Shown here piece by piece: positions 3,558-63,767 of a stretch of DNA of 64,000 bases. This DNA comes from Candidatus Omnitrophota bacterium (lineage in GTDB: Bacteria > Omnitrophota > Gorgyraeia > Zapsychrales > Zapsychraceae). The stretch lies in assembly GCA_015233405.1 (NCBI GenBank), contig JADFXT010000005.1, positions 74,210 to 138,209 of the forward strand, written 5' to 3'. The notes beneath the pieces are model-generated. The model was not told the origin of the DNA and did not search any database. It saw only the letters and a program-made list of their open reading frames with translations. Both the position numbers and the translations under genes were made by a program. How positions within the stretch are numbered: position 1 is the first letter of the stretch; each line of letters opens with the position of its first letter.

Positions 3558-5594
3558 ATGATTTCCTTCTTGAAACGATTCCAATCTCTGTTATTTTCTT
3601 TTGCTATCATATCCGTCGGATGGATAACCTACGGGCACACCTTAAATTACACATTCCACTTTGATGATGAATTTTTTCTCATCAAAAATCCTGCCATCCG
3701 CCATTTAGCCGACCCAGTGGGGGTCTGGCACTATGATCCTACACGCTTTGTCGCCTATTACTCCTTGGCCATTAATTACGCCATTCATCAATTTCGCTTA
3801 CCTGGTTGGCACATTACGAATATCTTTATCCATATTATTGCCGCACTTGCCGCGTATTGGTTAACGAACCTTTTGCTATCAACTCCTCGGATGGCAGAAG
3901 ATGTCTTAAACCGTCACAAAAAGCTACTTGCATTTTTTGTCGGATTAATTTTTGTCGCGCATCCTGTCCAAACGCAATCCGTTACATACATTTGGCAGAG
4001 ATGTGCATCTTTAGCGACCATGTTTTACCTTTTGTCTTTATGTTGCTATTTAAAAGCGCGACTCACAAACAATCGAAAAAGATTTTTTATTTTAGCCGGA
4101 ATCTTGGCAATGTTAGCATTTTTCACCAAAGAGATGACTGCCACATTGCCTGTCATGATTATTGTCATTGAAGGGACTCTATTTCACTTAACATTTTCTA
4201 AGGTTAAAACTACATTTTTAAGACACCGCAATATTTTCATTGTATTAGCAATTCTTCTTTTGTTCTTGCCATTTTTATGCCTGCAAGGCTTTTTCGCTGA
4301 TTATGGCATGAAAGCTCCGTCGGAATCTTTTGACGGAGAATTTATCAGCGGGAAAAATTATCTTATCTCCCAATTCAGGGTTTTATGGACATACATCCGG
4401 CTATTGTTTGTCCCCATGCATCAAAATCTGGACTATGAATATCACGTGTCGAAAAGTTTTTTTGAGCTAAAAACATTTTTAGGATTTGCCGGTTTACTCC
4501 TGATCATTTTTGGAGCCATAAAATTATTTAAAAAGCACCGCTTCTTATCTTTAGGGATATTCTGGTTCTTTATAACAATCTCGATTGAAGGAGGGATTGT
4601 CCCGATTGATTGTCTTATTTATGAACATCGCCTTTATCTTCCCATGTTTGGATATGCTTTATTCCTGGTAAGCGCGTTGTTCACATTATTCCAAGAAAAA
4701 CATTTTAAACATCTCATTATAGGGTTAACCGTTATATCTATGTTCTATGCTGCTGCGACGATAAAACGCAACTTCGTCTGGAAAGATGATTATACGCTTT
4801 GGAGCGATGTCATTAAAAAATCTCCGAACAAACTTCGGGCCTTCAATAATCGCGGAAAGGCCTTGGCGGAAATGGGCAAACAGGAGGAAGCCATTGAAGA
4901 TTTTAATCGGGGCATCGCCATCAATCCTACAACCTGGGCGCTTTATATTAATCGCGGGATTGGCTATCAAACTTTAGGACGATATAAAGAGGCCTACGAC
5001 GACTTTACGAAAGTCATCCAAAACAGCCGTGATGCCCACGCCTATAATTGCCGCGCACAATTGCGTTATGCCATGGGAGATGTCGACGGCGCTATTATGG
5101 ATTTTTCGAGCGCGATCAGTCAAAATCGCCTGCACCTTCAAGCTATTTTGAACAGAGGGACTTTGTACGTCCAGAAAAAACAATATAAATTGGCTCTTTA
5201 TGATTTCACGAATGCTATTTCGCTCGACCCATTTTATGCTCCGTCCTATGAAAATCGGGGAGACGTTTATTACCGACAAGGAAAAACCCAAGAAGCCCTG
5301 AACGATTTCAGCAAGGCGATCGAATTAATGCCTAATGTTCCATTTTTTTATCAAAATCGCGCAGCTCTTTATATGAGCATGGGGTCTGTTGAAAAAAGCC
5401 TATTGGATATTCAAAAAACCATCACCCTTGATCCCTATAATACTAAAGCTTATTTTCAGAGAGGAATCCTTTATTCCCAGAGAAAAGAATATGACAAGGC
5501 CTTAAGCGATTTTATGAATGCCCGCAACCTCGGTTATCCTCTTGATCCCAAAATTTTACCGCAGATAAAAGCTTTAATGAATAAAAATAAATAA
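3558..5594 (+). CDS. polytopic membrane protein with C-terminal TPR array (TMTC / protein O-mannosyltransferase-like architecture)
   Basis: N-terminal ~420 aa with >=9 TM segments and an HFDDEFFLIKNP motif near TM1. C-terminal ~250 aa holds >=6 TPR units (e.g. AFNNRGKALAEMGKQEEAIEDFNRGIAINP). Confidence 0.6.
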   Translation: MISFLKRFQSLLFSFAIISVGWITYGHTLNYTFHFDDEFFLIKNPAIRHLADPVGVWHYDPTRFVAYYSLAINYAIHQFRLPGWHITNIFIHIIAALAAYWLTNLLLSTPRMAEDVLNRHKKLLAFFVGLIFVAHPVQTQSVTYIWQRCASLATMFYLLSLCCYLKARLTNNRKRFFILAGILAMLAFFTKEMTATLPVMIIVIEGTLFHLTFSKVKTTFLRHRNIFIVLAILLLFLPFLCLQGFFADYGMKAPSESFDGEFISGKNYLISQFRVLWTYIRLLFVPMHQNLDYEYHVSKSFFELKTFLGFAGLLLIIFGAIKLFKKHRFLSLGIFWFFITISIEGGIVPIDCLIYEHRLYLPMFGYALFLVSALFTLFQEKHFKHLIIGLTVISMFYAAATIKRNFVWKDDYTLWSDVIKKSPNKLRAFNNRGKALAEMGKQEEAIEDFNRGIAINPTTWALYINRGIGYQTLGRYKEAYDDFTKVIQNSRDAHAYNCRAQLRYAMGDVDGAIMDFSSAISQNRLHLQAILNRGTLYVQKKQYKLALYDFTNAISLDPFYAPSYENRGDVYYRQGKTQEALNDFSKAIELMPNVPFFYQNRAALYMSMGSVEKSLLDIQKTITLDPYNTKAYFQRGILYSQRKEYDKALSDFMNARNLGYPLDPKILPQIKALMNKNK

Positions 5595-16340: not shown

Positions 16341-17534
16341 ATGGAAAACGTTCTACCCAAAAGACAGAAAAACTTCTTCATCAAAATCGTGTCGACAATT
16401 CTCTCGATCACGTTCATTTCCACAACGGCCGTACCGCCGAGCTATGCACAGGTTTTGAACCTTCCGCAGCCGGGCAGCATGGTGGGCCTCACGCCTGCAT
16501 TTATGCCTACGCTGATCAAGGGCTTAAAAGTCCATCCGGAGAATCCGCTTTTGTTCGATTTCATTCTCGATACCGGTAAATCCGGTATTGGAGTCAACAC
16601 TCCTGAATTCAAGTCCGAATCTGAAAAGCTCATCAAATATTTCCTAGCGTCAATGACGATCAAAGAGTCTGATTTGTGGGTCAACTTGTCACCGTACGAA
16701 AAGAATAGAATCGCGACTGACGAATTAGGCAAGACTGAGCTTGGAAAAGACATGTTGGCGCAGGACTATATTCTAAAGCAATTGACCGCGTCTTTAATGT
16801 ATCCAGAAAAAGAGATCGGGAAAGATTTCTGGAATAAAGTTTACGCTGAAGCGAAACAAAAATTTGGAACCACTGATATTCCTACAGACACGTTTAATAA
16901 AGTCTGGATCGTCGCTGATAAAGCGAAGATTTTTGAACACAACGACGCGGCGTATGTTGTTGGGGCGCATTTAAAGGTCATGCTAGAAAAAGACTACGTA
17001 GCAGCCAGTAAAGCTTCTTCCAGTCATTCCACAATCTCCCCATTGTCATCCCCGCAATCTTTAAGCGGGGATCCAGTAGTGGATTCCCGCCTTCGCGGGA
17101 ATGACATCAGTACTTCGATTATTAAAGAAATAATCATCCCCGCCATCGAAAAAGAAGTCAACGAAGGGAAGAACTTCGCAACATTAAGACAGATGTTCTA
17201 TTCGATGATTTTAGCGACGTGGTACAAGCAGGCGTTAAAAGATGCATTATTAAATCAAGTTTACAGTGACAAAGCTAAAATTGGCGGAGTTACAAATAAC
17301 GACCCAAATATTAAAGAAAAGATTTACGCCCAGTATTTCGAAGCCTTTAAGAAAGGCGCCTACAACTATATTAAAGAAGAATACGATCCTACGACACAGC
17401 AAGTAACACCTAAAAAATATTTCTCCGGCGGTCTTGAAATCGGCGTCGGGAAAGTCCTCGCCCGTCAAGCTATTCAAACCCCGGAAACCGACAACGCCAT
17501 GAAACCAAATGGCGACATGGCGATGGTAACGACA
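16341..17534 (+). other. shared N-terminal domain, copy 1 (~398 aa), ending in a double junction DNAMKPNGDMAMVTT
   Basis: Near-identical protein sequence to 23774-25027 (LPQPGSMV-LTPAFMPTLIKGLKVHPENPLLFDFILDTGKSG…), except for one 40-aa cassette and a 17-aa insertion in copy 2. Confidence 0.85.
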
Positions 17535-20500
17535 AATATCCATAATTTGAAGCAGATCAAGGCAGATGTGAAGAAAAACCAGGAAATGAAGAAAAAAAAT
17601 AATAAAAAAAGAGGATTATATTCCGCCCTTTCGGATGTCAAGTTTTTGGGTGGAGATTCAGCTGTTGTTAAAAAAGCTTTTAATGGAAATGTCTCAGCTC
17701 GACAAGAATTGGTTGATAGTGCCCGTTATAGATTTGCTATAGACGGCATCTCGAGAAGAAACTGGGCAGGTGAAGTCCTTTCTACTTTTGCACGTTCTGG
17801 CCATGTCTGGGCTCAAAATGCAATTGTCAGGGATGCCAAAGATGACTCCGATGATGATATGCGCTGGGCGAAGTTTGCTTTGTTCGATAGTGCTAAGCAT
17901 GGTTGGGACTGGGCCATCAAACAGGTTGCGATTTTGTCAGGCGATGATGAGGAGTTTCGGGAAGTAATAAGCAAAAAGCTTAATAGTGATAACCGTGGCA
18001 GCCAAGAGGAAGTGGAAGAAATCTTGATCCAGGCCATTCGTAACGGGCAGGTGTGGGCGAAGGATCTGGTAACGGAGAATATTGTGTCAAGGCATGAGTA
18101 CGTAGGGATTCATGTCGCGGCTGAAACTTATGAATTCTTTTCCAAAACGCAACAGAAGAAGATTTATCCTAAAATTAAATCATATTCCGATGAGCTGAAT
18201 AAGCTCAATAAACGGCTTCAGGGATTGGAAAAACAAGGGAAATCCCTCGACCGTGCCATGACGACCCTGTTGGTGATTCCTGCGTCGGAATCTGCGCACA
18301 TGACATTGAAAGAACTTTTTGATTTACTGCAGGAAGGAATTAAGAAGAACCAAGACAGGGGTGTCACGGAGGCTGAAGGAAAGTACCAGGGCATGAATTT
18401 TAAGGTCGTTATGGATACGACCTTAGGTGAAGATTATGAAAAATCTTTCAGGCCTAGGTTTGAAGAGAAATTGAAGAAGAACGATATCCAAAAAGACAAG
18501 GCCATGACGACGGAAAGAAAATCGACCTGGGACCAGGTCAAGGCATTTACACCAGGCACGGTGGATTGGCATATCAGACATCTTTTTCCGCAGTTTTCAG
18601 CAAAAGGAAAAATCCGGGCTATTAAGATCCTATCTAGAATTTACGAAAAGAATAATCCTAAACAGCAGGCCAGGATCGCTCAGGCATTGTTTGAGGTGGC
18701 AGGGAATAAGGACAGTTCTGTCTCCCAGGCCGCGGTCGATGCTATTGCTTCTAAATTAAAAGTAACGGGCATAGAAGATCCATTAAAACAGTTACTGAAC
18801 GGACTTCGGAATCAGGCTGGCGTTGATGTGGGCAAAGACCGTCTCCTGACGACGGCTGATGCCCAGATAAAGATTAAAGCCTTTGTCGCGTCGATGAAGG
18901 GCCTGCTTATTGCTCCGTTTGTTAATAACTCGACGATGGCAACACTTGCGGAGTTTGCGAACAACGTCGAGAAAGATGTGTACTCAGCCAAAACAAGGGC
19001 TGATTGGAAAAGAATATCTGAACGCCTGGCACAGGACAAGTCAAGAATAACAGGGTTCATAGAGGCAATAGCAGGGCGTGAGCCGCAATCCGTGTTTTCT
19101 TATGATAATTTCCTCAAAGAACAATTGAGAAAAGAAATGTACACGGCTTTTCAAGGCATTATTTCCGAGGCTGGGGAAGCCATGGATCGGCCCACAAACG
19201 CGATACTCATCAATGCCAGCGAAAGATCTCTACAAAATAATCCCCTGCGATTGTCTCTTCTTCCCGGCGAGGGTGTTGTTTTGAATGTTTCATCACATGC
19301 ATGGCAAGGATATTATCGTCATCACTCTTTTCTTTTATCGGCGGACAAAGACGGTAATTTGCTGGCAAGTCCTTTCAAGTTACCGAGCTTTCTTTCTAAA
19401 GATTATGATGGTAGGACGCGGCAAATGGACTACGAGACATTCTACGACAGTTTCCAAATCTATTTACCTCATGGCCTGACTTTGTGGCACTCTGATGGAT
19501 TCTCTGAAGATGCTGATGCTGGAATTATACACAACCAAGGCCCTACAGGGGCAAATTTAGCTATTGACAAGAATGGTAAAGATTTATTGCTATCGGTTGG
19601 TGATTATACGAGTTCACCAGGTAGTTTATCGGCAGGTGTCAACAGTATTGTTCTTCCCAAGGAAAAGGAAATCGTCCTCGGCAACGGAACGGATGTTGTC
19701 CATGTTACCTTAGACAAAGAGAAGACGAAAGAAGTCCAGATGGGCGGGGATACGGTCGTCCTTGAGGAGAAAGATGATTATGTTTTGGTAAGCAGTCATA
19801 TCAAAGACGGAACTATCTGGGCGGGCGTTGTCGACGAAGGGACTCCGGATGAGATCCTGGCTGCTCTGGACAAGGGCGAGCAATGGGCCTTGGATATTTT
19901 AGACAGGGATTTGGCAAAGAATGCAAACTTAGAGAAGGTGGCGTATATTTTAGATGCCGGTATTCAGAACAACAGGGATTGGGCGAAAAAGAGAATTATC
20001 GGACGCGATTTAAACGGCCAATATAGGTTACAACAGGTCGTGAAAGACCGCTATTATTCCGGCGGCGCAGAAGGGAAATTTTCCTGGTTGAAGGACGTAA
20101 TTATTGAGAACGCAAAGTTACCCGGCAATGATTGGGCGAAGGAAATAGTTTTTGGAAAAGAAGACAGTCAATTGATGCGCCTGGAAAATCTGCTTATCGA
20201 TGCCCGTAAAAACGCCCAGAGCGCTCAATCGTTTTCTGAGAAGATCCGCCATGTCATATTAAATGGGCATGATGATTCGGATTATGTTGTGATGGGCATG
20301 GCTATGGCAGATGCTTACGCCGGCCTGACATGGATGGTCAATCCGATGATTGAATGGCTTCAAGATAATTTCGATAATCGGGAACGCCTGGATGTAGCCG
20401 TCGCCGTTGTTTTTTCTCTCCTTCCTCCGGAAGTGAGGGAGAAAATTTTTAAGGATTTAGAACAGACAGATCCGAAAGGATTATCAAGCCTTCGCCGGGT

Positions 20501-23500: not shown

Positions 23501-23774
23501 ATTTCTTGAATCACATGACAAGGCCATGAACGCTGATATGAAGAACCCCGGCGGTATCGACTTAAACGCTAAGAATCTTCAGATGAATATTTCTAAAGAT
23601 GGAAAAGGCGTTGAATTCAAATTCGATCCGGCTATGGTGGAGCAATTTAAACTCGGAGATTTTACAGGCGTGATACCCGTCATCATTCGTATTACGCCAA
23701 TTTCAAGCCCGTTTCCGCTATTAGGATTAGAAATTCCGACGGAACAGGCAATAGAAATATCTAAAAGGTCTTAA
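16341..23774 (+). CDS. giant modular secreted protein 1 (2477 aa): signal peptide + shared N-domain, 8 junction-delimited modules, shared C-domain
   Basis: Uninterrupted 7.4-kb ORF with RBS gaggag upstream. N-terminal signal peptide …TTAVPPSYAQ|V. N- and C-terminal regions are paralogous to the next ORF. The interior is punctuated by D-x-A-M-T-T. Confidence 0.85.
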   Translation: MENVLPKRQKNFFIKIVSTILSITFISTTAVPPSYAQVLNLPQPGSMVGLTPAFMPTLIKGLKVHPENPLLFDFILDTGKSGIGVNTPEFKSESEKLIKYFLASMTIKESDLWVNLSPYEKNRIATDELGKTELGKDMLAQDYILKQLTASLMYPEKEIGKDFWNKVYAEAKQKFGTTDIPTDTFNKVWIVADKAKIFEHNDAAYVVGAHLKVMLEKDYVAASKASSSHSTISPLSSPQSLSGDPVVDSRLRGNDISTSIIKEIIIPAIEKEVNEGKNFATLRQMFYSMILATWYKQALKDALLNQVYSDKAKIGGVTNNDPNIKEKIYAQYFEAFKKGAYNYIKEEYDPTTQQVTPKKYFSGGLEIGVGKVLARQAIQTPETDNAMKPNGDMAMVTTNIHNLKQIKADVKKNQEMKKKNNKKRGLYSALSDVKFLGGDSAVVKKAFNGNVSARQELVDSARYRFAIDGISRRNWAGEVLSTFARSGHVWAQNAIVRDAKDDSDDDMRWAKFALFDSAKHGWDWAIKQVAILSGDDEEFREVISKKLNSDNRGSQEEVEEILIQAIRNGQVWAKDLVTENIVSRHEYVGIHVAAETYEFFSKTQQKKIYPKIKSYSDELNKLNKRLQGLEKQGKSLDRAMTTLLVIPASESAHMTLKELFDLLQEGIKKNQDRGVTEAEGKYQGMNFKVVMDTTLGEDYEKSFRPRFEEKLKKNDIQKDKAMTTERKSTWDQVKAFTPGTVDWHIRHLFPQFSAKGKIRAIKILSRIYEKNNPKQQARIAQALFEVAGNKDSSVSQAAVDAIASKLKVTGIEDPLKQLLNGLRNQAGVDVGKDRLLTTADAQIKIKAFVASMKGLLIAPFVNNSTMATLAEFANNVEKDVYSAKTRADWKRISERLAQDKSRITGFIEAIAGREPQSVFSYDNFLKEQLRKEMYTAFQGIISEAGEAMDRPTNAILINASERSLQNNPLRLSLLPGEGVVLNVSSHAWQGYYRHHSFLLSADKDGNLLASPFKLPSFLSKDYDGRTRQMDYETFYDSFQIYLPHGLTLWHSDGFSEDADAGIIHNQGPTGANLAIDKNGKDLLLSVGDYTSSPGSLSAGVNSIVLPKEKEIVLGNGTDVVHVTLDKEKTKEVQMGGDTVVLEEKDDYVLVSSHIKDGTIWAGVVDEGTPDEILAALDKGEQWALDILDRDLAKNANLEKVAYILDAGIQNNRDWAKKRIIGRDLNGQYRLQQVVKDRYYSGGAEGKFSWLKDVIIENAKLPGNDWAKEIVFGKEDSQLMRLENLLIDARKNAQSAQSFSEKIRHVILNGHDDSDYVVMGMAMADAYAGLTWMVNPMIEWLQDNFDNRERLDVAVAVVFSLLPPEVREKIFKDLEQTDPKGLSSLRRVISAFSSDLLNKQRSMIVNRYSDSVNGPRWSWGDDGSKGLSMESRENHKATIQAAQSITNKELALTEIIKKSSLASVYMGQRIGMRYNSLAARGDFAMTTEQPENQSRRNFLKNSAVITAGLLAGKGMLLAQAIKPNLRPEVKKTVEWLKHKINPQTGLIASFEGTPAGDPSTGVTWMYNQAQAIEVFLSIGDIKTAESLAKAMLKLEKHNGAWVGAYDTQSGKIATNIDEQRLSYVGFNMAIGHSFLNLLEKTQDKKLAINLLQASFGLMRWIAGYYHDKGNYGYFSGGENKAAVWTEYNVRAAAFYYQFANQLKDPNHPNKKAIEEIISPDSSKPLSESLRKDAEKVFHWVSGMWNKNQGYYEYGYTDSVKEKLIPEDWGNFEKENPKYWAHGMWAYPQYLVPIMARVAGLNPKDYAGGLGWVLNHQSTIVVNKNGQKVNLSGVPRWIGSRSINSKFTGEMAVALRLVGRDLEADKLLATLTQLQTPDGGIPEAVSDNPNDMWPLSFPYASVEASLAYIIGMQHLDPRYIAGTTQLAGNDDAAMTTATVKVLGEDMPARSVLKTISALQQDLLFSNITDERNTLNELVYGRKMIRLNHFTQRAKESPVADYNLFRELEKFLKDTVSFDIAILPLNGTPSLNGFRPGFYLNWKAPNEKMTQKMMMSAQLWLLNKALESQKALKGAGISDFAMTTGDNSTSSWEERQLAWEERIRQRDEEERRNQRRHQEAQADYENLAMNLFGEDDAMMTGNLRVLSFIGALTGSLLFTGQGMAANDPLASWIDPKADSMEISSTKMGYYVGQTIRQDGNTYIWNSNVNKYVPLKRTPKKPAADTSNTHKDTTAVVPDSSKKAKDQAMTAGDDDFDSFLRANRMRMETNETREITVKNVLGIHMKPSRAIYRAAEAFAKQGVFVAIETEGDFVRIYDESEAELTMHIQGLGIQDEQPIMVTIDSKKKLSPETINFVFDRLTYLLQTPALLENPEWDTNNATKTYLAEITQFLESHDKAMNADMKNPGGIDLNAKNLQMNISKDGKGVEFKFDPAMVEQFKLGDFTGVIPVIIRITPISSPFPLLGLEIPTEQAIEISKRS
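17045..17105. repeat. GC-rich double-hairpin palindromic element (type A), inserted in frame in giant gene 1
   Basis: GTCAT-CCCCGC-aatctttaa-GCGGGGAT…ATTCCCGC-cttc-GCGGGAAT-GAC: two hairpins bracketed by GTCAT/ATGAC. Translated as …SSPQSLSGDPVVDSRLRGND…. Related arms recur at 56113-56204. Confidence 0.75.
20790..22133 (+). other. module with canonical Tat signal peptide followed by an alpha-helical-repeat (possibly alpha/alpha-toroid, glycosidase-like) domain
   Basis: Starts at the junction Met: MTTEQPENQSRRNFLKNSAVITAGLLAGKGMLLAQA|IKP. This has the S-R-R-x-F-L-K motif, an h-region and A-x-A. The assignment of the mature part is by helix-repeat pattern only. Confidence 0.6.
22743..23072 (+). 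other. module starting with a Sec-type signal peptide
   Basis: Junction Met, then MMTGNLRVLSFIGALTGSLLFTGQGMA|AND. Confidence 0.5.
23073..23525 (+). other. module containing an HPr-like (PTS phosphocarrier fold) domain
   Basis: EITVKNVLGIHMKPSRAIYRAAEAF… parallels the HPr active-site segment (G-[IL]-H-A-R-P-A, His15 retained). …LTMHIQGLGIQDEQPIMVTIDS parallels the HPr LG-x-x-x-G-x-x-[IV] strand. The Ser46 equivalent is not conserved. Confidence 0.45.
23526..23771 (+). other. shared C-terminal domain, copy 1 (82 aa)
   Basis: MNADMKNPGGIDLNAKNLQMNISKDGKGVEFKFDPAMVEQFKLGDFTGVIPVIIRITPISSPFPLLGLEIP… is paralogous to 34193-34426. Confidence 0.8.
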
Positions 23775-25027
23775 TGAAAAATAACATCAATAAACATATT
23801 ATTTCACAGAGGCAAACGGTAAAAAGAATCATTTCCGCGGCTATTCTTGTCGCGTTTATATTCACAACTGTTATACCGCCGAGCTATGCACAAGTTATGA
23901 ACCCCGCCGCGATTGGCGGCGAGGCCTCGCCAACTTCACTGGTTGGCGGGTTGCCGCAGCCGGGCAGCATGGTGGACTTAACGCCTGCGTTTATGCCTAC
24001 GCTCATCAAGGGCTTAAAAGTCCATCCGGAGAATCCGCTTTTGTTTGATTTCATTCTCGATACCGGTAAATCTGGCATTGGAGTCAACACTCCTGAATTC
24101 AAATCCGAATCCGAAAAGCTCATCAAATATTTCTTAGCGTCCATGACGATCAAAGAATCCGATCTTTGGGTTAACTTGTCTCCGTACGAAAAGAATAGAA
24201 TTGCGACTGATGAATTAGGTAAAACAGAGCTTGGCCGTGACATGCTCGCGCAAGATTATATTCTCAAACAGCTCACGGCCTCGCTTATGTATCCAGAAAA
24301 GGAAATCGGAAAAGATTTTTGGAATAAAGTTTACGCTGAAGCGAAACAGAAATTTGGAACTACTGATATTCCTACGGACACGTTTAATAAAGTCTGGATC
24401 GTCGCAGATAAAGCAAAAATTTTCGAACACAACGATGCAGCCTATGTTGTCGGGGCGCATCTTAAAGTAATGTTGGAAGAGGATTACGAAGCGCTCAAAG
24501 CGAGCGCGGAGTCCCGAGCTACTGCGAGGGATTTGGCGGCTTCACATAATGTAGGGGCGGGGTTTCCCCGCCCTGATCATAAAGGGCGCGGTAACCGCGC
24601 CCCTACGGCGATCATCAAAAAAATCATCATCCCCGCCATCGAAAAAGAAGTCAACGAAGGAAAGAATTTCGCGACGCTTCGCCAGATGTTCTATTCGATG
24701 ATTTTAGCTACTTGGTATAAACAAGCCTTAAAAGATGCACTTTTAAATCAAGTTTACAGTGACAAAGCTAAAATTGGCGGAGTTACAAATAACGACCCAA
24801 ATATTAAAGAAAAGATTTACGCCCAGTATCTCGAAGCCTTTAAGAAAGGCGCCTACAACTATATTAAAGAAGAATACGATCCTACGACACAGCAAGTAAC
24901 ACCTAAAAAATATTTCTCCGGCGGTCTTGAAATCGGCGTCGGGAAAGTCCTCGCCCGTCAAGCTATTCAAACCCCGGAAACCGACAACGCCATGAAACCA
25001 AATGGCGACATGGCCATGGTGACGACC
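23774..25027 (+). other. shared N-terminal domain, copy 2 (~418 aa)
   Basis: Paralogous to 16341-17534, with an extra MNPAAIGGEASPTSLVGG after the signal peptide. Ends DNAMKPNGDMAMVTT. Confidence 0.85.
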
Positions 25028-28000
25028 AAGTTGGATAAAAATATCGACCGTGCTATGACCTCAATGGAAAGACGCGAGTTCCTTAGCGCCTTAGGTGGGC
25101 TTGTTACGGCAGGTGCGGTTTTGGGTGGTGGTGGATTTTTGGTTTACAAAGGGGTGCGTGCGGTAGACAAGATAGCGAAGCAGGAAGAAGAAAAATTTTC
25201 AAAGGAGTGGAATGAATTTGTTAAGACCCCTGAAGGGCTTAGGATCCAGAAGATGGTGGATGCATATTGGGCGGAGATCAAAATGCCCTATTATCGAGGA
25301 ATCCCAGACTTGAAGGAATATAGAGGGAAGCTGGCGGCGGCAACGATCATCACCGATAAAAAAATAACCACTCTTGTGGATGCTTTCCGCTATACATCCA
25401 GTGCCATAAGTATGTTAGGGACCCCTCTGCTTGACGACAAGCTGAGCACTCGAATGGCCATGGTTTCGGTATCGTCCGGCAAGGATATAGGGTTATTTGT
25501 AAAGGCCTATCAATATATAGACGATAAGAACACCAACAGCACTCTGGGCCTCCACCAAGAGTCGATGGTGGATATAGCGGTTGCTGCAGTCACAACAGGT
25601 AAAGACACCCAGGCTTTTCTCAATGCATACAGGTTTATGAAAAGCTATGATAAATTTCGGGCTGCATCCGGTGAGTCATCGGCGGTGCAAAGAGCGATTA
25701 CCGCGGTCACAACAGGAAAAGACCTGGAGGCATTTGCCAAAGCGTTCGAGTACATGACAAACTATAATAATGTTGGAACTAATATTAATGACGAATTGGC
25801 GGCGCAGATGGCGGTTGCAGTAGTCGCAACGGACAAAGCCCCCGAGGCATTGGCCAAGGCGTTCAGGTATATAAAAAACACTGGGCTCAGCGATGAATTA
25901 GCGGCGCAGATGGCGGTTGTTGCAGTCACAACGGGCAAAGATCCTGAAGCATTTGCCAAAGCGTTTAGGTATTCAAAAGACAACGTGCCGCCCGATTTTC
26001 TTATCAGTGATGAAATAGCGGCAGAGCTGGCGGTTGTTGCAGTCACAACGGGCAAAGACATAGCGGATTTTGTAATGGTTTTTCAATATATGAAAGGATA
26101 CGAGAATGGAACCAGCCCTCTTAGTGACGAATTAGCGACGCGGATGGCTATTGCCGCGATCCTCTCAGGCAAGAATAAAAAGGCCTTTGTGGAGGCCTTC
26201 AAGTATTTGCAGGACGGCGAAAACCAGCTGTTCTATCTCAACGATGAAGGCCGCGTACAGATGGCTATCGCCTCCGTCGTTACAGGCAAGAACATAAAAG
26301 CATTTGCGACTGCATACCGATATGTGAATGATCAAGTGGGGAGCCATGGCATCCTAGATGATGGTTTGCTGATCGTACGAATGGTCATTGTCGGGATGGC
26401 CCCCGAATTCTTTAACAAAGATCTTACTGGCGTAGATTCACTTAACGAATCGTTAGGCCCTGTGGCAGGAAGCATTCTTGGTGCTGTTTTTCTTGGAATG
26501 CCAGTGCTAGGAGCTATTCTAGGTGGCGGTTCTCTTGGCGGGGCAGCCATCGGGTATTTGATCGCGGGCCCGATTGGCGCGCTTTTGGGAGCTATATTAT
26601 TGGCGGATGATTATAAGGAGAGACCTGATAATTGGAGCGATCTGGCTAATCTTCATGCTCTCCAGAAGGTAACGGCGAGTCCGGCCACGCGTAGCGTTAA
26701 TGCTGATAAAGCCATGGGCGCCGAGTTGTCCGACCACGCTATGGTCACGCCAGGCCTAAATAGTTACTTCAATTACTCGGAAAAATTGAAAATATCAGGC
26801 GGGGACCTTGAGACATTGGCCCAAAAGTTCGCACTATATTTAGATAAAGTCGTAAATAACAAATACAGAAAAATGCCTTATCGATACTTGCCAGATCAAT
26901 GGCAAAAACGATTAAATGGCATCAACGAATTCTTGCTACGCACGCCGTTATACCAAGGGAAACTTCAAGACGGAAGTCCAATCTATCAATATATGATCGT
27001 ACCTCTTTTTAACCTTAACGGCGTTAAATCGATTGGCGCGATGATTGAGCCTGGTGATGGTCGGTCTTCTCCGCATCACTATATTTATTTAGGGATAGAG
27101 CCATATCTTTTAAGCGTCGAAGACCCCAAGATCCTTATCAATGCCGTGCTTGATCAAATTAAGGTCAACCAAAATGATTCTTCATCTTATAAGGCCTGGA
27201 GAAATTATTATACCCAAGGGCTTTTAAGTGAAGTTGAAGAAGCCGACAAGGCCATGACGGCGGATAGGGAAAAGGATGCGACAACAGAGGTCCTCACACA
27301 AGAAGATCTAAATGAGTTGATCCGCCTCATAGACGAACACGATGATATCCGTTTTGACACGAGTAATGCGGTAAAGGCGATAGAATTGCGTCAGCCTGAA
27401 ATTGTTACGCGCTTTGAAAGGGATTTGGATGAGAACAGAAGGTGGTTAGCACAGGCGGTAGTTGAAGGCCTTTTGAATAATAAAGAATGGGCCCGCAAAG
27501 CTGTGGCCGAGCATGGCCTTATGAATCAATCTAATTTTCGAGAGATTTTAGATAGTGCGCTTGATATGAGAAAAGTGGAGGCCCTGAAAGTTTATTTGTG
27601 GAACAGACAATGGTTTGTTGATGTGGTTGTGCAGGAAGTCAAAGCGTCCCCAAAAGGGGCACAAGACTTTCTATACAAACTCTTGGAGGATAATAATCAT
27701 GGAGACAACTGTTTCTGGGCTTGGGAGGCCGTACTTGCTTTGGCACGAGAAGGAAATGCTTGGGCAAAGGACACTCTTTTTTCTTGGGCAAAAAGTTACT
27801 CGACATCATCTTATTATTCCCCAGAAGATTTAGCCATAAAAATGGCCAGACAGATAATATTGATGGAAGCCTATGCCGGTCAGTCATGGGTAGGTGATTT
27901 AAAAGATGTGTCGGATGTCATAAAGAATGAAAAGGCACCTGAACATCCTATTTTGCGAGAAAGATCAGAGGGCATAAGCCCGACGATCTTTGAGTCATTT

Positions 28001-56099: not shown

Positions 56100-56112
56100 T
56101 GCTTCACTCCTG

Positions 56113-56204
56113 TCATTCCCGCGAAAGCGGGAATCCAGGATATGGATTAAGCCTAAATAGAAATTCAAAAGAAACAATGGATCCCCGCTTTCGCGGGGAT
56201 GACA
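56113..56204. repeat. intergenic GC-rich palindromic element (type A family): two hairpins in inverted orientation around a 42-bp AT-rich spacer
   Basis: GTCATTCCCGC-gaaa-GCGGGAATCC (56113-56137) and GGATCCCCGC-tttc-GCGGGGATGAC (56180-56204). The arms have the same sequence type as 17045-17105. Confidence 0.75.
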
Positions 56205-56216
56205 AAAGAAGGTAGA

Positions 56217-57590
56217 ATGAAATACCGCGTTGAAAAAGATAGTTTTGGCGAGATCAAAGTGCCGGCAGAAAAATATTACGGCGCGCAGACGGCCAGGTCT
56301 CTAAAAAATTTCGCTATTGGGCGAGAAACATTCCCATCTGAATTTATCCAAGCCTTAGGGATTATCAAAAAAGCGGCCGCACTGACCAACCAAGAGCTCA
56401 GGATTTTACCTTCAATAAAAGTTTCTCTCATTGTTAAAGCTGCTGATGAAATCATTGACGGAAAGCTCAACGATCACTTTCCCTTGTCCATTTGGCAAAC
56501 CGGTAGCGGCACGCAAACCAATATGAATGCCAACGAAGTCATTGCCAACCGCGCCATGAAATTAGCCGGAGGAAAAGTCCGTATTCATCCCAACGACGAT
56601 GTGAACCGCTGTCAATCTTCCAATGACGTTATTCCAACAGCCATGCACGTTTCAGCCGTTCAAGAAATTTATGCGGAGCTTGTTCCTGCCGTTAAAAATT
56701 TACGCGATAGCCTAACTAAGAAAAATAAAGAATTTAAGACGATCGTTAAAATCGGACGGACCCATTTGATGGATGCAACCCCAATCACGTTAGGGCAGGA
56801 ATTTTCCGGCTACGCCCAACAGATGACGAATGGGTTAAAACGAATCGAGAAATCTTTACCATCCTTGTATGAACTTGCATTAGGCGGGACAGCTGTTGGC
56901 ACAGGATTAAACAGCCATCCGCAATTTGCTAAAAAGGCCGCCCAGAAAATTGCCCAACTGACAAAGAAACCATTTGTGAGCGCACCAAACAAATTTGAAG
57001 CGTTAGCCTCTCATGATGGAATTGTAGAATTTAGCGGAACGTTGAAAACATTAGCTGTTTCTTTGATGAAGATCGCCAATGATATCCGGTTTCTTGCCTC
57101 AGGTCCAAGATGTGGGATAGGAGAGCTCATTCTACCAGCGAATGAACCCGGAAGCTCCATCATGCCTGGAAAAGTCAATCCGACACAATGTGAAGCCATG
57201 ACCATGGTCTGCGCTCAAGTCATTGGTAATGATACAACAATCACACTCGCAGGCGCTTGTGGACAATTAGAACTCAACGTCTTTAAACCGGTTATCATCT
57301 ATAACCTGCTTCAATCCATCAAACTTTTATCCGATGCGTGTAATAGCTTCAACGATAACTGCATTGTCGGGATTAAGCCCAATACAACAAAAATCAAAGA
57401 CAATCTGGATAAATCGCTCATGCTCATTACAGCGCTTACTCCCAAAATTGGTTATGATAATGCCGCGTTAGTTGCAAAGAAAGCTCATCAAGAAAATCTC
57501 ACGCTTAAACAAGCCGCTGTTTCCCTTAAAATGCTCACTGCAAAAGAATTTGATTCCCTCGTAAACCCTCGAAAGATGCTCCATCCTTAA
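56217..57590 (+). CDS. fumC: class II fumarate hydratase
   Basis: Signature [17 protein letters not shown]-terminus [12 protein letters not shown] is typical. The track start at 56199 lies inside the palindromic repeat and is rejected. RBS agaagg sits before 56217. Confidence 0.92.
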
Positions 57591-59413: not shown

Positions 59414-59562
59414 CGGTTCATTTTTGCCTTTTTTAAACGCAGGCTTTTTGATATCATGGAGCTTAACAGATAAATTCGTTATATCTCTATCTTTTCTAAA
59501 TTTTTCCTCGCGAACATCCCCGTAGCAGGGCGATGTGGTATTCTGCGGAGGGGGATGAAAAT

Positions 59563-60396
59563 ATGAACACAATCATCGAAAACAAACAGCTGTCAGAGAA
59601 CGTCTTTCAAATCACTCTTGAAGCGCCAATGATCGCCGAGTCCAGAAAGCCCGGACAATTTATTCTCCTACAGGTCCACGAAGATGGCGAACGAATCCCC
59701 TTAACCATTGCCGACGTCGATATAAAAGCCGGGACGATAACGCTCATTGTCCAGGTCGCAGGAAAAACGACCCATTTATTGTCCCAATTAAAATCTGGTG
59801 AGAGTATTTTTTATGTCGTCGGGCCCTTGGGCAATCCGACGCACATTGACTATTTCGGACGAGTTATTTGTATCGGTGGCGGGATCGGGACTGCGCCACT
59901 ATATCCAATCGCCAAGGCGCTCAAAGAAAAAGGGAATTACCTGATTACCATTTTAGGCGCTCGGACAAAAAACCTTTTTATCCTCGAAGATAAAATGAAA
60001 GCCGTCTCGGATGAATTTATTATTTGCACCGACGACGGCAGTTATGGACAAAAAGGATTGGTCACCCAGCCATTAAAAGAACTCTGCGAAAAAACTCCCA
60101 AGCCTGATTTGGTTGTTGCCATTGGCCCAGCGATCATGATGAAATTCTGTGCGGAAACGACACGGCCATTTCATATTAAAACACTTGTTTCACTCAATAC
60201 CATCATGGTCGACGGAACGGGCATGTGCGGCGGCTGCCGTGTGAGTGTCGGGGGCAAAGCGCAATTTGTTTGTGTCGACGGGCCTGAATTCGACGGACAT
60301 TTGGTTGATTTTCAAAATATGATGCAAAGGCTGAGCGCGTACAAAAAACAAGAAGAGCTCAAATATCACGAGTGTAAACTAAAAAATATCCGATGA
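59563..60396 (+). CDS. FAD/NAD(P)-binding [2Fe-2S] oxidoreductase subunit (PyrK-like; NfnA / sulfide dehydrogenase beta type)
   Basis: RIPLTIAD flavin-binding R-x-x-[ST] type segment, GGGIGTAP, and a C-terminal C-x-x-C…C cluster (MCGGCRV…FVCVDGPEF). ATG at 59563. Confidence 0.7.
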   Translation: MNTIIENKQLSENVFQITLEAPMIAESRKPGQFILLQVHEDGERIPLTIADVDIKAGTITLIVQVAGKTTHLLSQLKSGESIFYVVGPLGNPTHIDYFGRVICIGGGIGTAPLYPIAKALKEKGNYLITILGARTKNLFILEDKMKAVSDEFIICTDDGSYGQKGLVTQPLKELCEKTPKPDLVVAIGPAIMMKFCAETTRPFHIKTLVSLNTIMVDGTGMCGGCRVSVGGKAQFVCVDGPEFDGHLVDFQNMMQRLSAYKKQEELKYHECKLKNIR

Positions 60397-61880
60397 CCCA
60401 TTTATCTTTTGAACAATTTAAATCCAAAGCCAAAGAACTGCTCGAGAAGTTCACTGGTAAACCCTTATCGACTAAAGATAAGATTTCGATTCCCATGCAG
60501 GAAATGCCGACGCAAGAACCTTTGGAAAGAATAAAAAATATGTCAGAGGTAGCTCTTGGATATTCTCCCGAGCAAGCCAAGCTTGAAGCGCTTCGTTGCC
60601 TGGAATGTAAAAATCTTCCTTGCATTAAAGGATGTCCTGTGCAGATCAATATTCCAGGATTCATCAAAGCCATTGCCGACGGAGACAATAAGCTCGCGAT
60701 TGATATTATTAAACGCAATAGCCTCTTGCCGGCGGTCTGTGGACGTGTTTGCCCGCAAGAAACCCAATGCCAGGAACTTTGTACCATCGGGAAATCTTTA
60801 AAAGACGTCAATCAAGCGGTGTCTATCGGGCGATTGGAACGTTTTGTCGCGGATTGGGAACGGGACAACCATTTAATGAAAGCCCCAGAGGTCAAACCTG
60901 AAACGCATAAAAAAGTTGCCGTCATCGGAAGCGGGCCTGCCGGCATTACTGTTGCCGCTGATGTTCGACGAGAAGGCCATAGCGTGACCATATTCGAGGC
61001 CTTTCATAAACCTGGTGGCGTTCTTATTTACGGCATCCCCGAATTCCGTCTCCCCAAAAAGATCGTCGAGATAGAGATCGAAACCCTTAAAAAAATGGGC
61101 GTTGAGATTAAAACAAATTTTGTCATCGGCCGGACAAAAACATTGCCAGAACTTTTAGAAAAAGACAAATTTGACGCCATCTTTATCGGCACCGGCGCTG
61201 GCTTACCAAAATTTTTAGAGATAGAAGGGGAGAATGCCATAGGGGTCTTTTCCGCCAATGAATATTTAACCCGGTCAAATCTGATGCGGGCTTATGATCG
61301 TGAACATGCCGACACGCCCATTGTCCGATCTCATAAAGTCGCGGTTCTAGGCGGAGGTAACGTCGCGATGGATGCCGCGCGCACCGCTTTAAGATTAGGC
61401 GCCCAAGAAGTTCACCTGATTTACCGCCGGACGGAAGTTGAGATGCCTGCCCGCGTCGAGGAAGTTGCACATGCCAAAGAAGAAGGCGTCCAATTTCATT
61501 TTCTTGAAAATGCGAAACGCATTATTTCCGACGATTACGGCTGCGTCAAGGCCATTGAATGCCTTAAATATCAATTAGGCGAACCGGACAGCTCCGGACG
61601 ACGACGTCCCATTGCCATCAAGGGAAGCGAATTTCTCTTTGAAGTAGACACGGTGATTGTCGCCGTCGGCAATGAATCGAACCCATTAATCAAACAAACC
61701 ACTCCGGACCTTAAAACGAACGAATGGGGCAATATTATCGCTGACGCCAACGGCAAAACATCCATGGACCGCGTTTTTGCCGGCGGAGATATTGTCATCG
61801 GCGCGGCTACGGTCATCTTAGCCATGGGACAAGGCCGCATTGCCGCCAAGTCCATTAATGAACTTTTGAGCTCTAAATAA
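60393..61880 (+). CDS. glutamate synthase small-subunit-like NADPH oxidoreductase (NfnB / GltD family)
   Basis: CLECKNLPCIKGCPV… and CGRVCPQETQCQ Fe-S motifs. VAVIGSGPAG and VAVLGGGNVAMD dinucleotide folds. 4-nt overlap with the preceding subunit gene. Confidence 0.8.
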   Translation: MTHLSFEQFKSKAKELLEKFTGKPLSTKDKISIPMQEMPTQEPLERIKNMSEVALGYSPEQAKLEALRCLECKNLPCIKGCPVQINIPGFIKAIADGDNKLAIDIIKRNSLLPAVCGRVCPQETQCQELCTIGKSLKDVNQAVSIGRLERFVADWERDNHLMKAPEVKPETHKKVAVIGSGPAGITVAADVRREGHSVTIFEAFHKPGGVLIYGIPEFRLPKKIVEIEIETLKKMGVEIKTNFVIGRTKTLPELLEKDKFDAIFIGTGAGLPKFLEIEGENAIGVFSANEYLTRSNLMRAYDREHADTPIVRSHKVAVLGGGNVAMDAARTALRLGAQEVHLIYRRTEVEMPARVEEVAHAKEEGVQFHFLENAKRIISDDYGCVKAIECLKYQLGEPDSSGRRRPIAIKGSEFLFEVDTVIVAVGNESNPLIKQTTPDLKTNEWGNIIADANGKTSMDRVFAGGDIVIGAATVILAMGQGRIAAKSINELLSSK

Positions 61881-61923
61881 AAAAACACCTCGAAATCATT
61901 ACTCTGACCTGTTTAAGAAAAAT

Positions 61924-62997
61924 ATGGACAATCCTGCCGCTCAATTCTGGAAAAGCACCAAAAAAGATAAAGTAACCTGCTATCTTTGCCCTCGAGGATG
62001 TATTTTAACCGAAGGGAAGAGCGGATTTTGCTGGACCAGAAAAAACGTCCAAGGGAATATGGTCTTAACCACCTATGGACAGGCCAGCGGATTCTGCGTC
62101 GACCCGATTGAAAAAAAACCTCTATATCATTTTTATCCGGGAACATCGGTTTTTTCATTTGGCACGACCGGATGTAATCTCGCCTGCAAATTCTGTCAAA
62201 ATTGGCACATGCAAACGCCGGAAGCTATTGAAAAAATCACGAACCAGAAACAAAAAGCGAGCCCGGAACAAATCGCTCAAACGGCCAAAGAACTTGGCTG
62301 TCACAGCGTCGCCTTTACTTATAACGAACCCATCACTTTTGCCGAGTTTGCCATGGACGTTGCCAAGGCATGCCGAAACATCGGAATAAAAACCGTGGCC
62401 GTAACGGCAGGATATATTACCGAAGAACCACGAAAAGATTTTTTTAAATATATGGACGCTGCGAACGTAGACCTAAAAGCCTTCACGGAAGAGTTCTACC
62501 ACAAATTGACCTCAACATCGCTAAAGCCGGTCTTAGAAACTTTGAAATATTTGGCAAAAGAAACCAATGTCTGGCTTGAAATCACAAACCTTATCATCCC
62601 CGGCGAGAATGATGACGAATCTGAAATCCATCAAATGACCGAATGGATCGCGAAAGAACTCCGCCTAGACATTCCACTGCATTTTTCAGCGTTTCATCCA
62701 GCCTTTAAAATGCTGGACCATCAAGCAACACCGGTCCAAACACTTTTAAAAGCTCGCCAAATCGCTTTATCCAAAGGATTACGCTACGTTTATGCCGGGA
62801 ACATCGTCGACGCGGAAAGTTCAACGACATTTTGCCATCATTGCAAAGAACTCCTCATTGAACGATATGGTTTTGAGATAACAACCTATAAACTCAAAGA
62901 CAAAAATAAATGCCCCAAATGCCAGACCGTTTGTGCCGGACAGTTTAGTGACAAGCCGGGCGAGTGGGGCTCAAAACGACTGCCTGTTTCTTTATGA
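61924..62997 (+). CDS. AmmeMemoRadiSam-system radical SAM enzyme (PflA-like activase family)
   Basis: CNLACKFCQNW (C-x3-C-x2-C), N-terminal CYLCPRGC and C-terminal CHHC…CPKC Cys pairs. This layout is typical of that subfamily. Confidence 0.7.
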   Translation: MDNPAAQFWKSTKKDKVTCYLCPRGCILTEGKSGFCWTRKNVQGNMVLTTYGQASGFCVDPIEKKPLYHFYPGTSVFSFGTTGCNLACKFCQNWHMQTPEAIEKITNQKQKASPEQIAQTAKELGCHSVAFTYNEPITFAEFAMDVAKACRNIGIKTVAVTAGYITEEPRKDFFKYMDAANVDLKAFTEEFYHKLTSTSLKPVLETLKYLAKETNVWLEITNLIIPGENDDESEIHQMTEWIAKELRLDIPLHFSAFHPAFKMLDHQATPVQTLLKARQIALSKGLRYVYAGNIVDAESSTTFCHHCKELLIERYGFEITTYKLKDKNKCPKCQTVCAGQFSDKPGEWGSKRLPVSL

Positions 62998-63767
62998 AAA
63001 TCTTAAGCTGGAACGTTAACGGCATTCGCGCCGTCGCCAAAAAAGGATTTATTGATTGGCTTATCAAAGAGTCTCCGGATATCTTGTGCCTCCAGGAAAC
63101 AAAAAGCTCGCCCGACCAACTTGCGCAGGAACTACTAGAACCTACAGGATATAAAACATTCTGGTCGTCAGCACAAAAGAAAGGCTATAGCGGCGTCGGC
63201 GTATTTACTAAATCAGCTCCCAATCATGTCGAGGAAGGCTTAGGTAAAAAAGAATTTGATCTAGAAGGCCGCACGCTCATGCTGGAATATCCAGACTTTG
63301 TTCTTTTTAATATTTATTTTCCTAATGGCGGCGAGGGGAATAAACGCGTGCCTTTTAAAATGGCTTTTTACGACGAATTTCTCAAAAAAGCCCTTAAACT
63401 TAAAAACCAAGGTAAGAAAATCATTCTCTGCGGCGACGTCAATACCGCTCATACAGAAATCGATTTATCCCGGCCAAAAGACAACGAAAAGAATACCGGA
63501 TTTCTACCCGAAGAACGCGCATGGGTCACCAAATTCATCGAACATGGATTTATTGACACGTTTCGATATTTTCACAAAGAAGGAGGACATTATTCCTGGT
63601 GGGATTATAAAACGAAGGCCAGAGAAAGAGATGTCGGTTGGAGGATTGATTATTTTTTTGTTACGGAAAGCCTGATCAAATCCGTCAAGAACGCTTTTAT
63701 TTTAAAAAATGTCTTGGGTTCAGATCACTGTCCTGTCGGGATTGAAGTGAAACTCCCTGGGCTTTAG
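62994..63767 (+). CDS. xth: exodeoxyribonuclease III
   Basis: MKILSWNVNGIRA, CLQETK, GDVNTAHTEIDL and SDHCPV motifs. ATGA overlap with the upstream stop. Confidence 0.9.
   Translation: MKILSWNVNGIRAVAKKGFIDWLIKESPDILCLQETKSSPDQLAQELLEPTGYKTFWSSAQKKGYSGVGVFTKSAPNHVEEGLGKKEFDLEGRTLMLEYPDFVLFNIYFPNGGEGNKRVPFKMAFYDEFLKKALKLKNQGKKIILCGDVNTAHTEIDLSRPKDNEKNTGFLPEERAWVTKFIEHGFIDTFRYFHKEGGHYSWWDYKTKARERDVGWRIDYFFVTESLIKSVKNAFILKNVLGSDHCPVGIEVKLPGL

Follow-up and report, generated by a model that had tools for sequence, protein, structure and literature searches.

How does a strong palindromic hairpin come to stand inside a protein-coding gene without breaking it? The question is raised by a 64 000-nt stretch of a Candidatus Omnitrophota genome (GenBank assembly GCA_015233405.1, contig JADFXT010000005.1, forward-strand positions 74 210 to 138 209), referred to below as the window and numbered from its first letter. 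It contains two giant open reading frames (ORFs) in tandem, gene 1 and gene 2, which begin with closely related copies of the same N-terminal domain (the N-domain), and within this domain a short linker of gene 1 holds a GC-rich double hairpin. The original prediction, made from the letters alone, was that a palindromic element of the repetitive extragenic palindromic (REP) or miniature inverted-repeat transposable element (MITE) type had colonised the gene in frame. REPs are non-autonomous, multi-copy DNA hairpin elements. The explanation judged highly probable here is that REP dimers landed in a tolerant protein loop and survived there as they were in frame and stop-free.

A REP dimer translated within gene 1

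The 250 residues flanking the linker that were compared are 99 % identical between gene 1 and gene 2. The 120 bp of the linker itself form an island of approximately 30–45 % identity, a random level, embedded in a block of about 1.07 kb that is 77–100 % identical per 60-nt window. Weak similarity inside the linker is confined to the first seven or so codons (A..KAS).

The element in the gene 1 linker reads TGTC-ATCCCCGC-aatctttaa-GCGGGGAT-CCA-gtag-TGG-ATTCCCGC-cttc-GCGGGAAT-GACA, and both stems (ATCCCCGC/GCGGGGAT and ATTCCCGC/GCGGGAAT) are perfect over 8 bp. Its length from TGTCAT to ATGACA is 63 nt, exactly 21 codons, and three of its six frames are stop-free. Because an open frame is in use over a whole number of codons, the gene has stayed intact and the element is translated. 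Residues 235–255 read (L)SSPQSLSGDPVVDSRLRGND, or LSSPQSLSGDPVVDSRLRGND when the translation is written in full, with arm 2 read on the plus strand as (V)DSRLRGND. The peptide SSPQSLSGDPVVDSR is an example of what is predicted to be read through from the hairpin element.

The GC content was 0.57 at 17050–17109, compared with approximately 0.40 in the flanks and 0.413 in the whole window. A 71-nt stretch covering the element gave fold z-scores of −6.0 as RNA and −6.3 as DNA, with 0 of 200 shuffles folding as well. The arm pattern was matched three times in the window against 0.01 matches expected, and tolerating three mismatches gave no additional match (0.00 expected). An Rfam scan of the whole window returned 0 matches at the gathering threshold. 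The original description of two hairpins with terminal inverted repeats, richer in GC than their surroundings, lying in 120 bp without similarity to the paralogue and read through in frame, is thus confirmed in each part. Upstream of the dimer, GTCATTCC repeats the 8 nt with which the REP starts (tag and stem start) and may be a decayed REP head. The stem CCCCGC...GCGGGG is shared with the repeat of type I-E clustered regularly interspaced short palindromic repeats (CRISPR); this resemblance was considered and rejected, there being no array and a different tag and tail.

Prokaryotic REPs have been split into GTAG- and CGTC-tagged superfamilies (Di Nocera, De Gregorio and Rocco 2013, BMC Genomics 14:522; PMC3733652). 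According to that report, CGTC-1 elements carry a CGTC tag (variants TGTC and CCTC), an 8-bp stem with A–T pairs at the first two positions, a 4-nt loop (deviant in some taxa) and a CCA tail, and they occur mainly as dimers. The loops described for CGTC families are of 4–5 nt, no dedicated transposase and no REP-associated tyrosine transposase (RAYT) are known for them, and REP dimers inside ORFs, encoding 20–30 aa, are documented (PMC3733652). In the window, all four CGTC-type arms, two in gene 1 and two in an intergenic copy, have TGTC at their outer end, all stems are of 8 bp and start with AT, CCA stands behind every arm, and both loci are dimers with their tags outward. The loop is of 4 nt in arm 2 (CTTC) and in both intergenic arms, and of 9 nt in arm 1. 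On these features the gene 1 element is classed as a CGTC-1-like REP dimer, similar in architecture to a REPIN, and not as a classical MITE, because no target-site duplication and no parent insertion sequence (IS) are visible. The REP half of the proposed REP/MITE identity therefore stood and the MITE half did not.

Dimers in the paralogue and between genes

The homologous linker position of gene 2 holds a dimer of different sequence, GTAG-GGGCGGGG-ttt-CCCCGCCC-tgatcataaa-GGGCGCGG-taa-CCGCGCCC-CTAC, translated in frame as VGAGFPRPDHKGRGNRAP. GTAG lies at both outer ends of this GC-rich inverted doublet, its RNA fold z-score is −4.8, and gene 2 uses one of the two frames that are open out of six. 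The pattern of its arms was found again in 89 IMG/VR stretches, and a single contig often holds several. Judged by its tags and architecture, the element is a GTAG-type, REPIN-like dimer, and the same loop in two tandem paralogues holds REPs of two different superfamilies, CGTC in gene 1 and GTAG in gene 2. The gene 2 dimer was overlooked in the original prediction, as were the family-wide REPs in the linker and three other loops described below.

Three palindromic dimers stand out in the window, two of them in these paralogous linkers. The third is intergenic and shares the gene 1 arms (96 % over 27 nt by blastn), as had been noticed from the letters. Its 27-nt inverted-repeat arms are separated by 40 nt, the hairpins proper by 46 nt, and its RNA fold z-score is −8.3. 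It stands between two genes, beginning 12 nt past the stop codon of one for an M17 aminopeptidase and preceding one for a class II fumarase.

Table 1. Coordinates of the genes, linker and REP features in the window
Feature	Position	Strand	Description
Gene 1, giant ORF, 2477 aa	16341–23774	+	Signal-peptide-like N-terminus and uncharacterised N-domain of ~400 aa; hosts the element
Gene 2, tandem paralogous giant ORF, 3551 aa	23774–34429	+	GHMP-kinase domains farther downstream (Pfam)
Hypervariable linker ('cassette'), aa 220–259	16998–17117	+	Between conserved HLKVMLEKDY and IIKEIIIPAIEKEVN
Possible decayed REP head	17023–17030	+	GTCATTCC; same 8 nt as REP start, upstream of the dimer
CGTC-type REP dimer of gene 1	17044–17106	+	Two hairpins with 8-bp stems, mutually inverted; TGTC tags outward, CCA tails inward
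REP arm 1	17044–17075	+	Tag TGTC, stem ATCCCCGC, 9-nt loop AATCTTTAA, stem GCGGGGAT, tail CCA; translated LSSPQSLSGDP
Inter-arm spacer, 4 nt	17076–17079	+	GTAG
REP arm 2, inverted	17080–17106	−	Minus-strand reading: tag TGTC, stem ATTCCCGC, 4-nt loop GAAG, stem GCGGGAAT, tail CCA
GTAG-tagged REP dimer of gene 2, 56 nt	24551–24606	+	Homologous linker position of gene 2
Intergenic CGTC-type REP dimer, 94 bp	56111–56204	+	Both arms with 4-nt loops; tags outward

The linker as a hypervariable loop

Homologues of the N-domain numbered 1449, and those with a named source were nearly all from Candidatus Omnitrophota. Pfam assigned no domain to the N-domain, and a Foldseek comparison of its model with the PDB gave no match (best E-value 0.2). 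The model was built with AlphaFold from a 40-sequence alignment and had a mean predicted local distance difference test score (pLDDT) of 73 and a predicted template modelling score (pTM) of 0.68. When the gene 1 segment was mapped onto it, residues 231–249 had pLDDT values below 50 and lay between helices 216–228 and 251–275.

For the segment between HLKVMLExDY and xIIREIIIPEIEKEVN, both the length (approximately 10–80 aa) and the sequence changed from homologue to homologue throughout the 40-sequence alignment. In a nearest-neighbour comparison of 80 loci, linkers were unrelated where their flanks were 81–87 % identical, as they are in the window paralogues at 99 %. The site is accordingly a tolerant, hypervariable and disordered loop. 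The term 'replaceable cassette' that had been applied to it is apt as a description of a variable linker; exchange is another matter, with no silent or donor cassette copies in the window by blastn and no exchange machinery found among the window ORFs scanned.

A separate observation concerns the paralogues downstream of the linker, where 237 of 240 positions are identical at 17241–17480, compared with ~88 % upstream of the linker. This tract, which begins ~120 nt downstream of the REP and not at the REP, indicates a recent gene conversion.

Copies across phyla and the search for a mobilising enzyme

In a collection of species-representative genomes (contigs L001–L120), at least 120 stretches, spread over at least 13 phylum-level groups, contain the exact 26-mer arm TGGATYCCCGCYTTCGCGGGRATGAC; at least 120 stretches of the viral-classified IMG/VR collection (L201–L320) contain it as well. 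Among the matches listed, the isolates included Povalibacter, Massilia, Ramlibacter, Thiohalobacter and Sphingomonas. The metagenome-assembled genomes (MAGs) among them were labelled Bacteroidota, Alpha-, Beta-, Gamma- and Deltaproteobacteria, Chloroflexota, Planctomycetota, Nitrospirota, Acidobacteriota, Gemmatimonadota, Zixibacteria, Hydrogenedentota, Vampirovibrionales, candidate phyla radiation (CPR) groups and Omnitrophota. This range is far wider than the five phyla of CGTC REP hosts reported in 2013 (PMC3733652). Dimers with tags outward numbered 57 among the collected loci, mostly with 4/4 loops. A 9/4-loop heterodimer like that of gene 1 occurred twice in the Omnitrophota MAG contig L077 (JAHFHD010000044.1), at 1285–1348 and at 3657–3720, the latter directly after the HATPase domain of a histidine kinase.

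These copies bear on another alternative, in which the palindrome is a coincidence of ordinary coding sequence or was produced by misassembly at a repeat. Such a reading might draw on the finding of only two CGTC loci in 64 kb. Set against it are the expected match numbers of 0.00–0.01, the same arms in hundreds of independent contigs, and the in-frame phenomenon itself in more than a dozen independent metagenome contigs. An absence of further copies, together with protein-level conservation of the 40-residue segment in distant homologues, would be the mark of ordinary coding sequence, and neither was found, because copies abound elsewhere and the segment is unconserved. We regard this alternative as effectively refuted.

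For the 120 genome loci with 157 REP arms, all open frames of at least 110 aa were clustered, and no recurring transposase or IS was found, in a search of low power given that one transposase gene per genome would seldom fall within an 8-kb sample. The families that did recur near these arms were all generic (ABC ATPase, response regulator, SDR, ADH, AMP-binding and histidine kinase). Within the window, Pfam identified no transposase, RAYT or recombinase in 32 of the 37 ORFs of at least 150 aa (the five left out lie at 59533–63767). Flanking direct repeats of the target-site duplication kind were absent at 17044/17106, at 56111/56204 and at the L077 copies.

A classical MITE, that is, a deletion derivative of an IS moved by a cognate DDE transposase with target-site duplications, would share with the element its terminal inverted repeats, small size and multiple copies. 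It would not account for the lack of flanking direct repeats at the copies examined, for the occurrence of the unit also as single hairpins, or for the finding of no IS with these ends and no transposase near the 157 copies. CGTC elements are moreover classed in the literature as REPs without a dedicated transposase (PMC3733652). A MITE origin is therefore considered very improbable.

Accumulation of REPs across the N-domain family

The DNA of 80 metagenomic N-domain homologues was used to obtain 73 distinct linkers (71 metagenomic linkers and those of the two window genes), 8.2 kb in total. Perfect hairpins with stems of at least 8 bp numbered 18 in these linkers, compared with 14 in 61 kb of adjoining N-domain coding sequence. 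The corresponding densities, 2.18 and 0.23 per kb, represent an approximately 10-fold enrichment in linkers (Poisson P = 2e-12); shuffled linkers gave a mean of 0.69. A recognisable REP was present in about one in five linkers. The density of REPs was ~0.8 per kb in linkers and ~0.04 per kb in other coding DNA of the same contigs, approximately 20-fold, and only this comparison was used, as a stop-to-stop mask of coding and non-coding DNA is unreliable for REPs, most of whose frames are stop-free and run on into the frames beside them. REPs of the same types also occur between genes.

Exact tagged REPs stood in frame in linkers L126, L140, L148, L160, L168, L181 and L195. Those of L140 and L168 contain TGTC ATTCCCGC GAAA GCGGGAAT CCA, those of L160 and L181 contain ATCCCCGA with a 9-nt loop, as in arm 1 of gene 1, and those of L126, L148 and L195 contain ATTCCCGA ATGCTTCTG TCGGGAAT, translated as SFPNASVGNP. 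In this last group L126 and L148 share one 33-nt REP letter for letter, and L195 departs from it at two bases only, in the tag and tail, although the flanks have diverged. The 9-nt-loop subtype was found in linkers L126, L148, L160, L168, L181 and L195, and in contig L077. Degenerate or interrupted copies occurred in L125, L129, L163, L178/L179, L194 and L200. Related units of the CGTCATTCTGA type were present in linkers L134, L154 and L192, and a GTAG-type unit in L133.

Three other sites in the N-domain also hold in-frame REPs, namely after FDFxLDxG, before IYQQYL and before PRKYFSGG. In the alignment each of the three is variable in length or sequence, and in the model each forms coil lying between elements of secondary structure. 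Single in-frame arms at loops other than the linker (L140:2395–2417, L160:1705–1727, L168:2487–2514 and L200:2407–2429) have the tag on the coding strand and use one frame per subtype.

A further observation was made on the interrupted copies. In L125, L129, L178/L179 and L194, 20–45 nt of extra DNA, partly palindromic, is nested in the REP loop or stem with the frame kept. This suggests that REP hairpins are themselves insertion targets.

Origin of the in-frame elements

The course of events that we favour begins with REP units or dimers that insert, or are copied, into DNA, one copy of which would have entered the disordered, hypervariable surface loop of the gene 1 N-domain. In coding sequence such a copy should survive only in a tolerant loop, with the frame kept and no stop introduced. 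A length of 63 nt, or 21 codons, and an open frame would have left gene 1 intact, with the element translated as about 21 loop residues. Gene 2 may have gained its GTAG-type dimer independently at the same place. The loop would behave like non-coding DNA limited only by frame and stops, so that across the family REPs of several types could build up in it, degrade and be hit by nested insertions. The presence or absence of REPs among close homologues, their varied types and frames, and their nesting and decay argue for repeated gain and decay and not for a conserved functional structure.

Several observations weigh against this account, and against a purely neutral model in particular. The tag lies 5′ on the coding strand in every one of the family's 11 single in-frame arms; stop filtering alone would lead to an expectation of ~40 % in reverse orientation, so that a uniform set has a probability of 0.6^11 = 0.004. 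The arms with 4-nt loops read VIPAKAGIQ in five of five cases and those with 9-nt loops SxPNxxxGxP in nine of nine; all three forward frames of the arms are open, yet one frame per subtype is used. Two of the three window dimers fall within ~0.25 kb of linker, compared with ~5.2 kb lying outside ORFs of at least 150 aa. The 9-nt loop of arm 1 departs from the 4–5 nt of described CGTC families. The count of CGTC-type copies in this genome covers the 64-kb window, with two loci (four arms); many are present in related Omnitrophota contigs. No target-site duplication is visible at the element, and the databases contain neither an empty site nor a close orthologue (the best N-domain homologue is 63 % identical); for this reason the insertion and its exact boundaries are inferred. 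The neutral-passenger status and the action of a mobilising enzyme are likewise proposed. The in-ORF copies in other phyla occur in both orientations and in several frames. The bias within the N-domain family could be explained by strand-specific insertion of single-stranded DNA, by selection for loop-friendly peptides, or by spread through recombination among paralogues.

Part of the same evidence would fit selected, functional hairpins, either as mRNA or DNA structures that tune gene expression, at the level of translation or transcription, where the two halves of the domain meet, or as a recombination module driving exchange or diversification of the loop among N-domain paralogues. In Neisseria, dRS3/NIME arrays promote rearrangement and offer an analogy for such a module. 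Constancy of orientation and frame, the 33-nt REP conserved (to within two bases in L195) between diverged flanks, the concentration of REPs in linkers and of two of the three window dimers there, and the contrast between near-identical paralogue flanks and wholly different linkers speak for a function, and the near-100 % tract does begin ~120 nt downstream. A selected structure would, on the other hand, hardly be expected to lack a strong hairpin in 57 of 73 linkers, to vary in REP type, number and position within the linker, or to be found between genes as well. The many degenerate and nested copies point to decay and not to purifying selection. With regard to recombination, the window offers no donor or silent cassettes and no recombinase, transposase or RAYT in the 32 ORFs scanned, and the conversion tract does not end at the element, so that the window lends no support to a role in recombination. 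Functional hairpins are thus considered quite unlikely, and survival of REP dimers in a tolerant loop continues to be preferred.

A bolder reading can also be put forward, in which the loops of the N-domain, foremost the linker at residues 220–259, would be preferred, strand-specific landing sites of CGTC REPs reached through a single-strand DNA process. Gain, nesting and decay of REPs would then be the main diversifier of an exposed loop in secreted giant proteins of predatory or parasitic ultra-small bacteria, and amount to an adaptive variation system. The uniform orientation and frame and the occupation of both paralogues are compatible with landing sites of this kind, and peptide-level selection or recombination among paralogues would explain them too. 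We hold this reading to be speculative and rather doubtful.

Genomic setting and further observations

A PilZ gene and a hybrid histidine kinase gene lie upstream of the giant genes, a setting that, together with the GHMP-kinase domains of gene 2, is consistent with published descriptions of giant-gene neighbourhoods in Omnitrophota (bioRxiv 10.1101/2023.11.21.568195); palindromic repeats are not mentioned in that work. The N-domain (16341–17540 in gene 1 and 23774–25030 in gene 2) is fused in its homologues to very different C-terminal parts, including ankyrin, NUDIX and GHMP kinase. It is an uncharacterised leader domain and apparently secreted.

Gene 2 contains, just past its signal-peptide-like region, a GC-rich in-frame insertion of 48 nt, PAAIGGEASPTSLVGG (23904–23951), which is missing from gene 1 and from 38 of 38 other aligned homologues. 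It includes the small palindromes GCCGC-gattg-GCGGC and GGCGAGG/CCTCGCC, and as DNA it folds with a z-score of only −2.7. At the start of the gene 2 linker (24508–24532), the peptide AESRAxARD is encoded by an imperfect palindrome (GAG TCC CGA GCY NCT GCG AGG GAT) and is common to gene 2 and three distant homologues (L150, L174 and protein P0055). Either an old hairpin has decayed here, or the motif is conserved in a sub-family.

Two predicted protein starts coincide with REP arms. The mechanically called fumarase ORF starts at ATG 56199, within the right arm of the intergenic REP (GGGGATGACA; window 56199–56221), and the true start is more likely ATG 56219, behind a GAAGG-like ribosome-binding site. 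REP arms with ATGAC ends can thus yield false start codons. The predicted start of protein P0008, MRSSICHSRMLLSGIQ, is a translated 9-nt-loop REP arm in the third frame, and was probably mis-called by way of an upstream REP.

Significance

Membership of the REP superfamilies and in-frame residence of such elements in genes were already known. New here are the host phylum, a heterodimer subtype with 9/4 loops, the presence of one superfamily in each of two paralogues at corresponding loops, and the family-wide accumulation in loops with a strict bias of orientation and frame. In-frame colonisation by REPs, known in Rickettsia and a few other bacteria, now includes Candidatus Omnitrophota and its giant genes. 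With its repeated uptake of both REP superfamilies, one uncharacterised domain family offers a natural system in which to study the conversion of selfish hairpin DNA into protein sequence. Conservation of a 26-nt arm across phyla, combined with the bias of strand and frame, allows the question of how CGTC REPs are mobilised to be tested more sharply. In annotation work, a peptide such as WIPAFAGMT is a sign of a translated REP and of a start codon called wrongly.

Comparison with known palindromic elements

Among the described families, CGTC-1 is the closest. Arm 2 of gene 1 and both intergenic arms share all of its published features, and arm 1 shares all but the loop length. Further common traits are a position just downstream of ORFs, as in the intergenic copy, in-frame dimers inside genes and the lack of an associated transposase. 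The window differs in the 9/4-loop heterodimer subtype, seen only in Omnitrophota contigs, in a phylum that is not among the five of the published survey, and in insertions that recur in one protein family.

With REPINs and GTAG REPs the elements have in common a doublet architecture that folds into one long hairpin, and the gene 2 element has GTAG at both outer ends. REPINs depend on RAYT, a tyrosine HUH transposase (TnpA-REP), and in this respect the window differs, no RAYT being present among the ORFs scanned.

In Neisseria, dRS3 repeats are clustered in intergenic arrays and used as integration or recombination sites, and no arrays are seen here. The arm itself is nearly identical, a Neisseria sequence in PMC7593972 containing cGTCATTCCCGCGAAAGCGGGAATCTAG, and dRS3 is placed in CGTC-1 (PMC3733652). 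As arrangements, the Neisseria arrays and the Omnitrophota dimers are thus unlike, and as hairpin units they are much the same.

The Rickettsia palindromic elements (RPEs) provide the comparison that was first proposed for the locus. The best known of them, RPE-1, is longer, at over 100 bp. The comparison proved well founded, in that RPEs are likewise palindromic repeats standing in frame in coding genes and translated as extra loop residues, and that the same superfamily includes RPE-6 of Rickettsia conorii (in CGTC-1) and RPE-4 (in CGTC-4; PMC3733652). The difference lies in distribution: Rickettsia insertions are scattered over many unrelated genes, whereas those described here are concentrated in the loops of one multi-copy domain.

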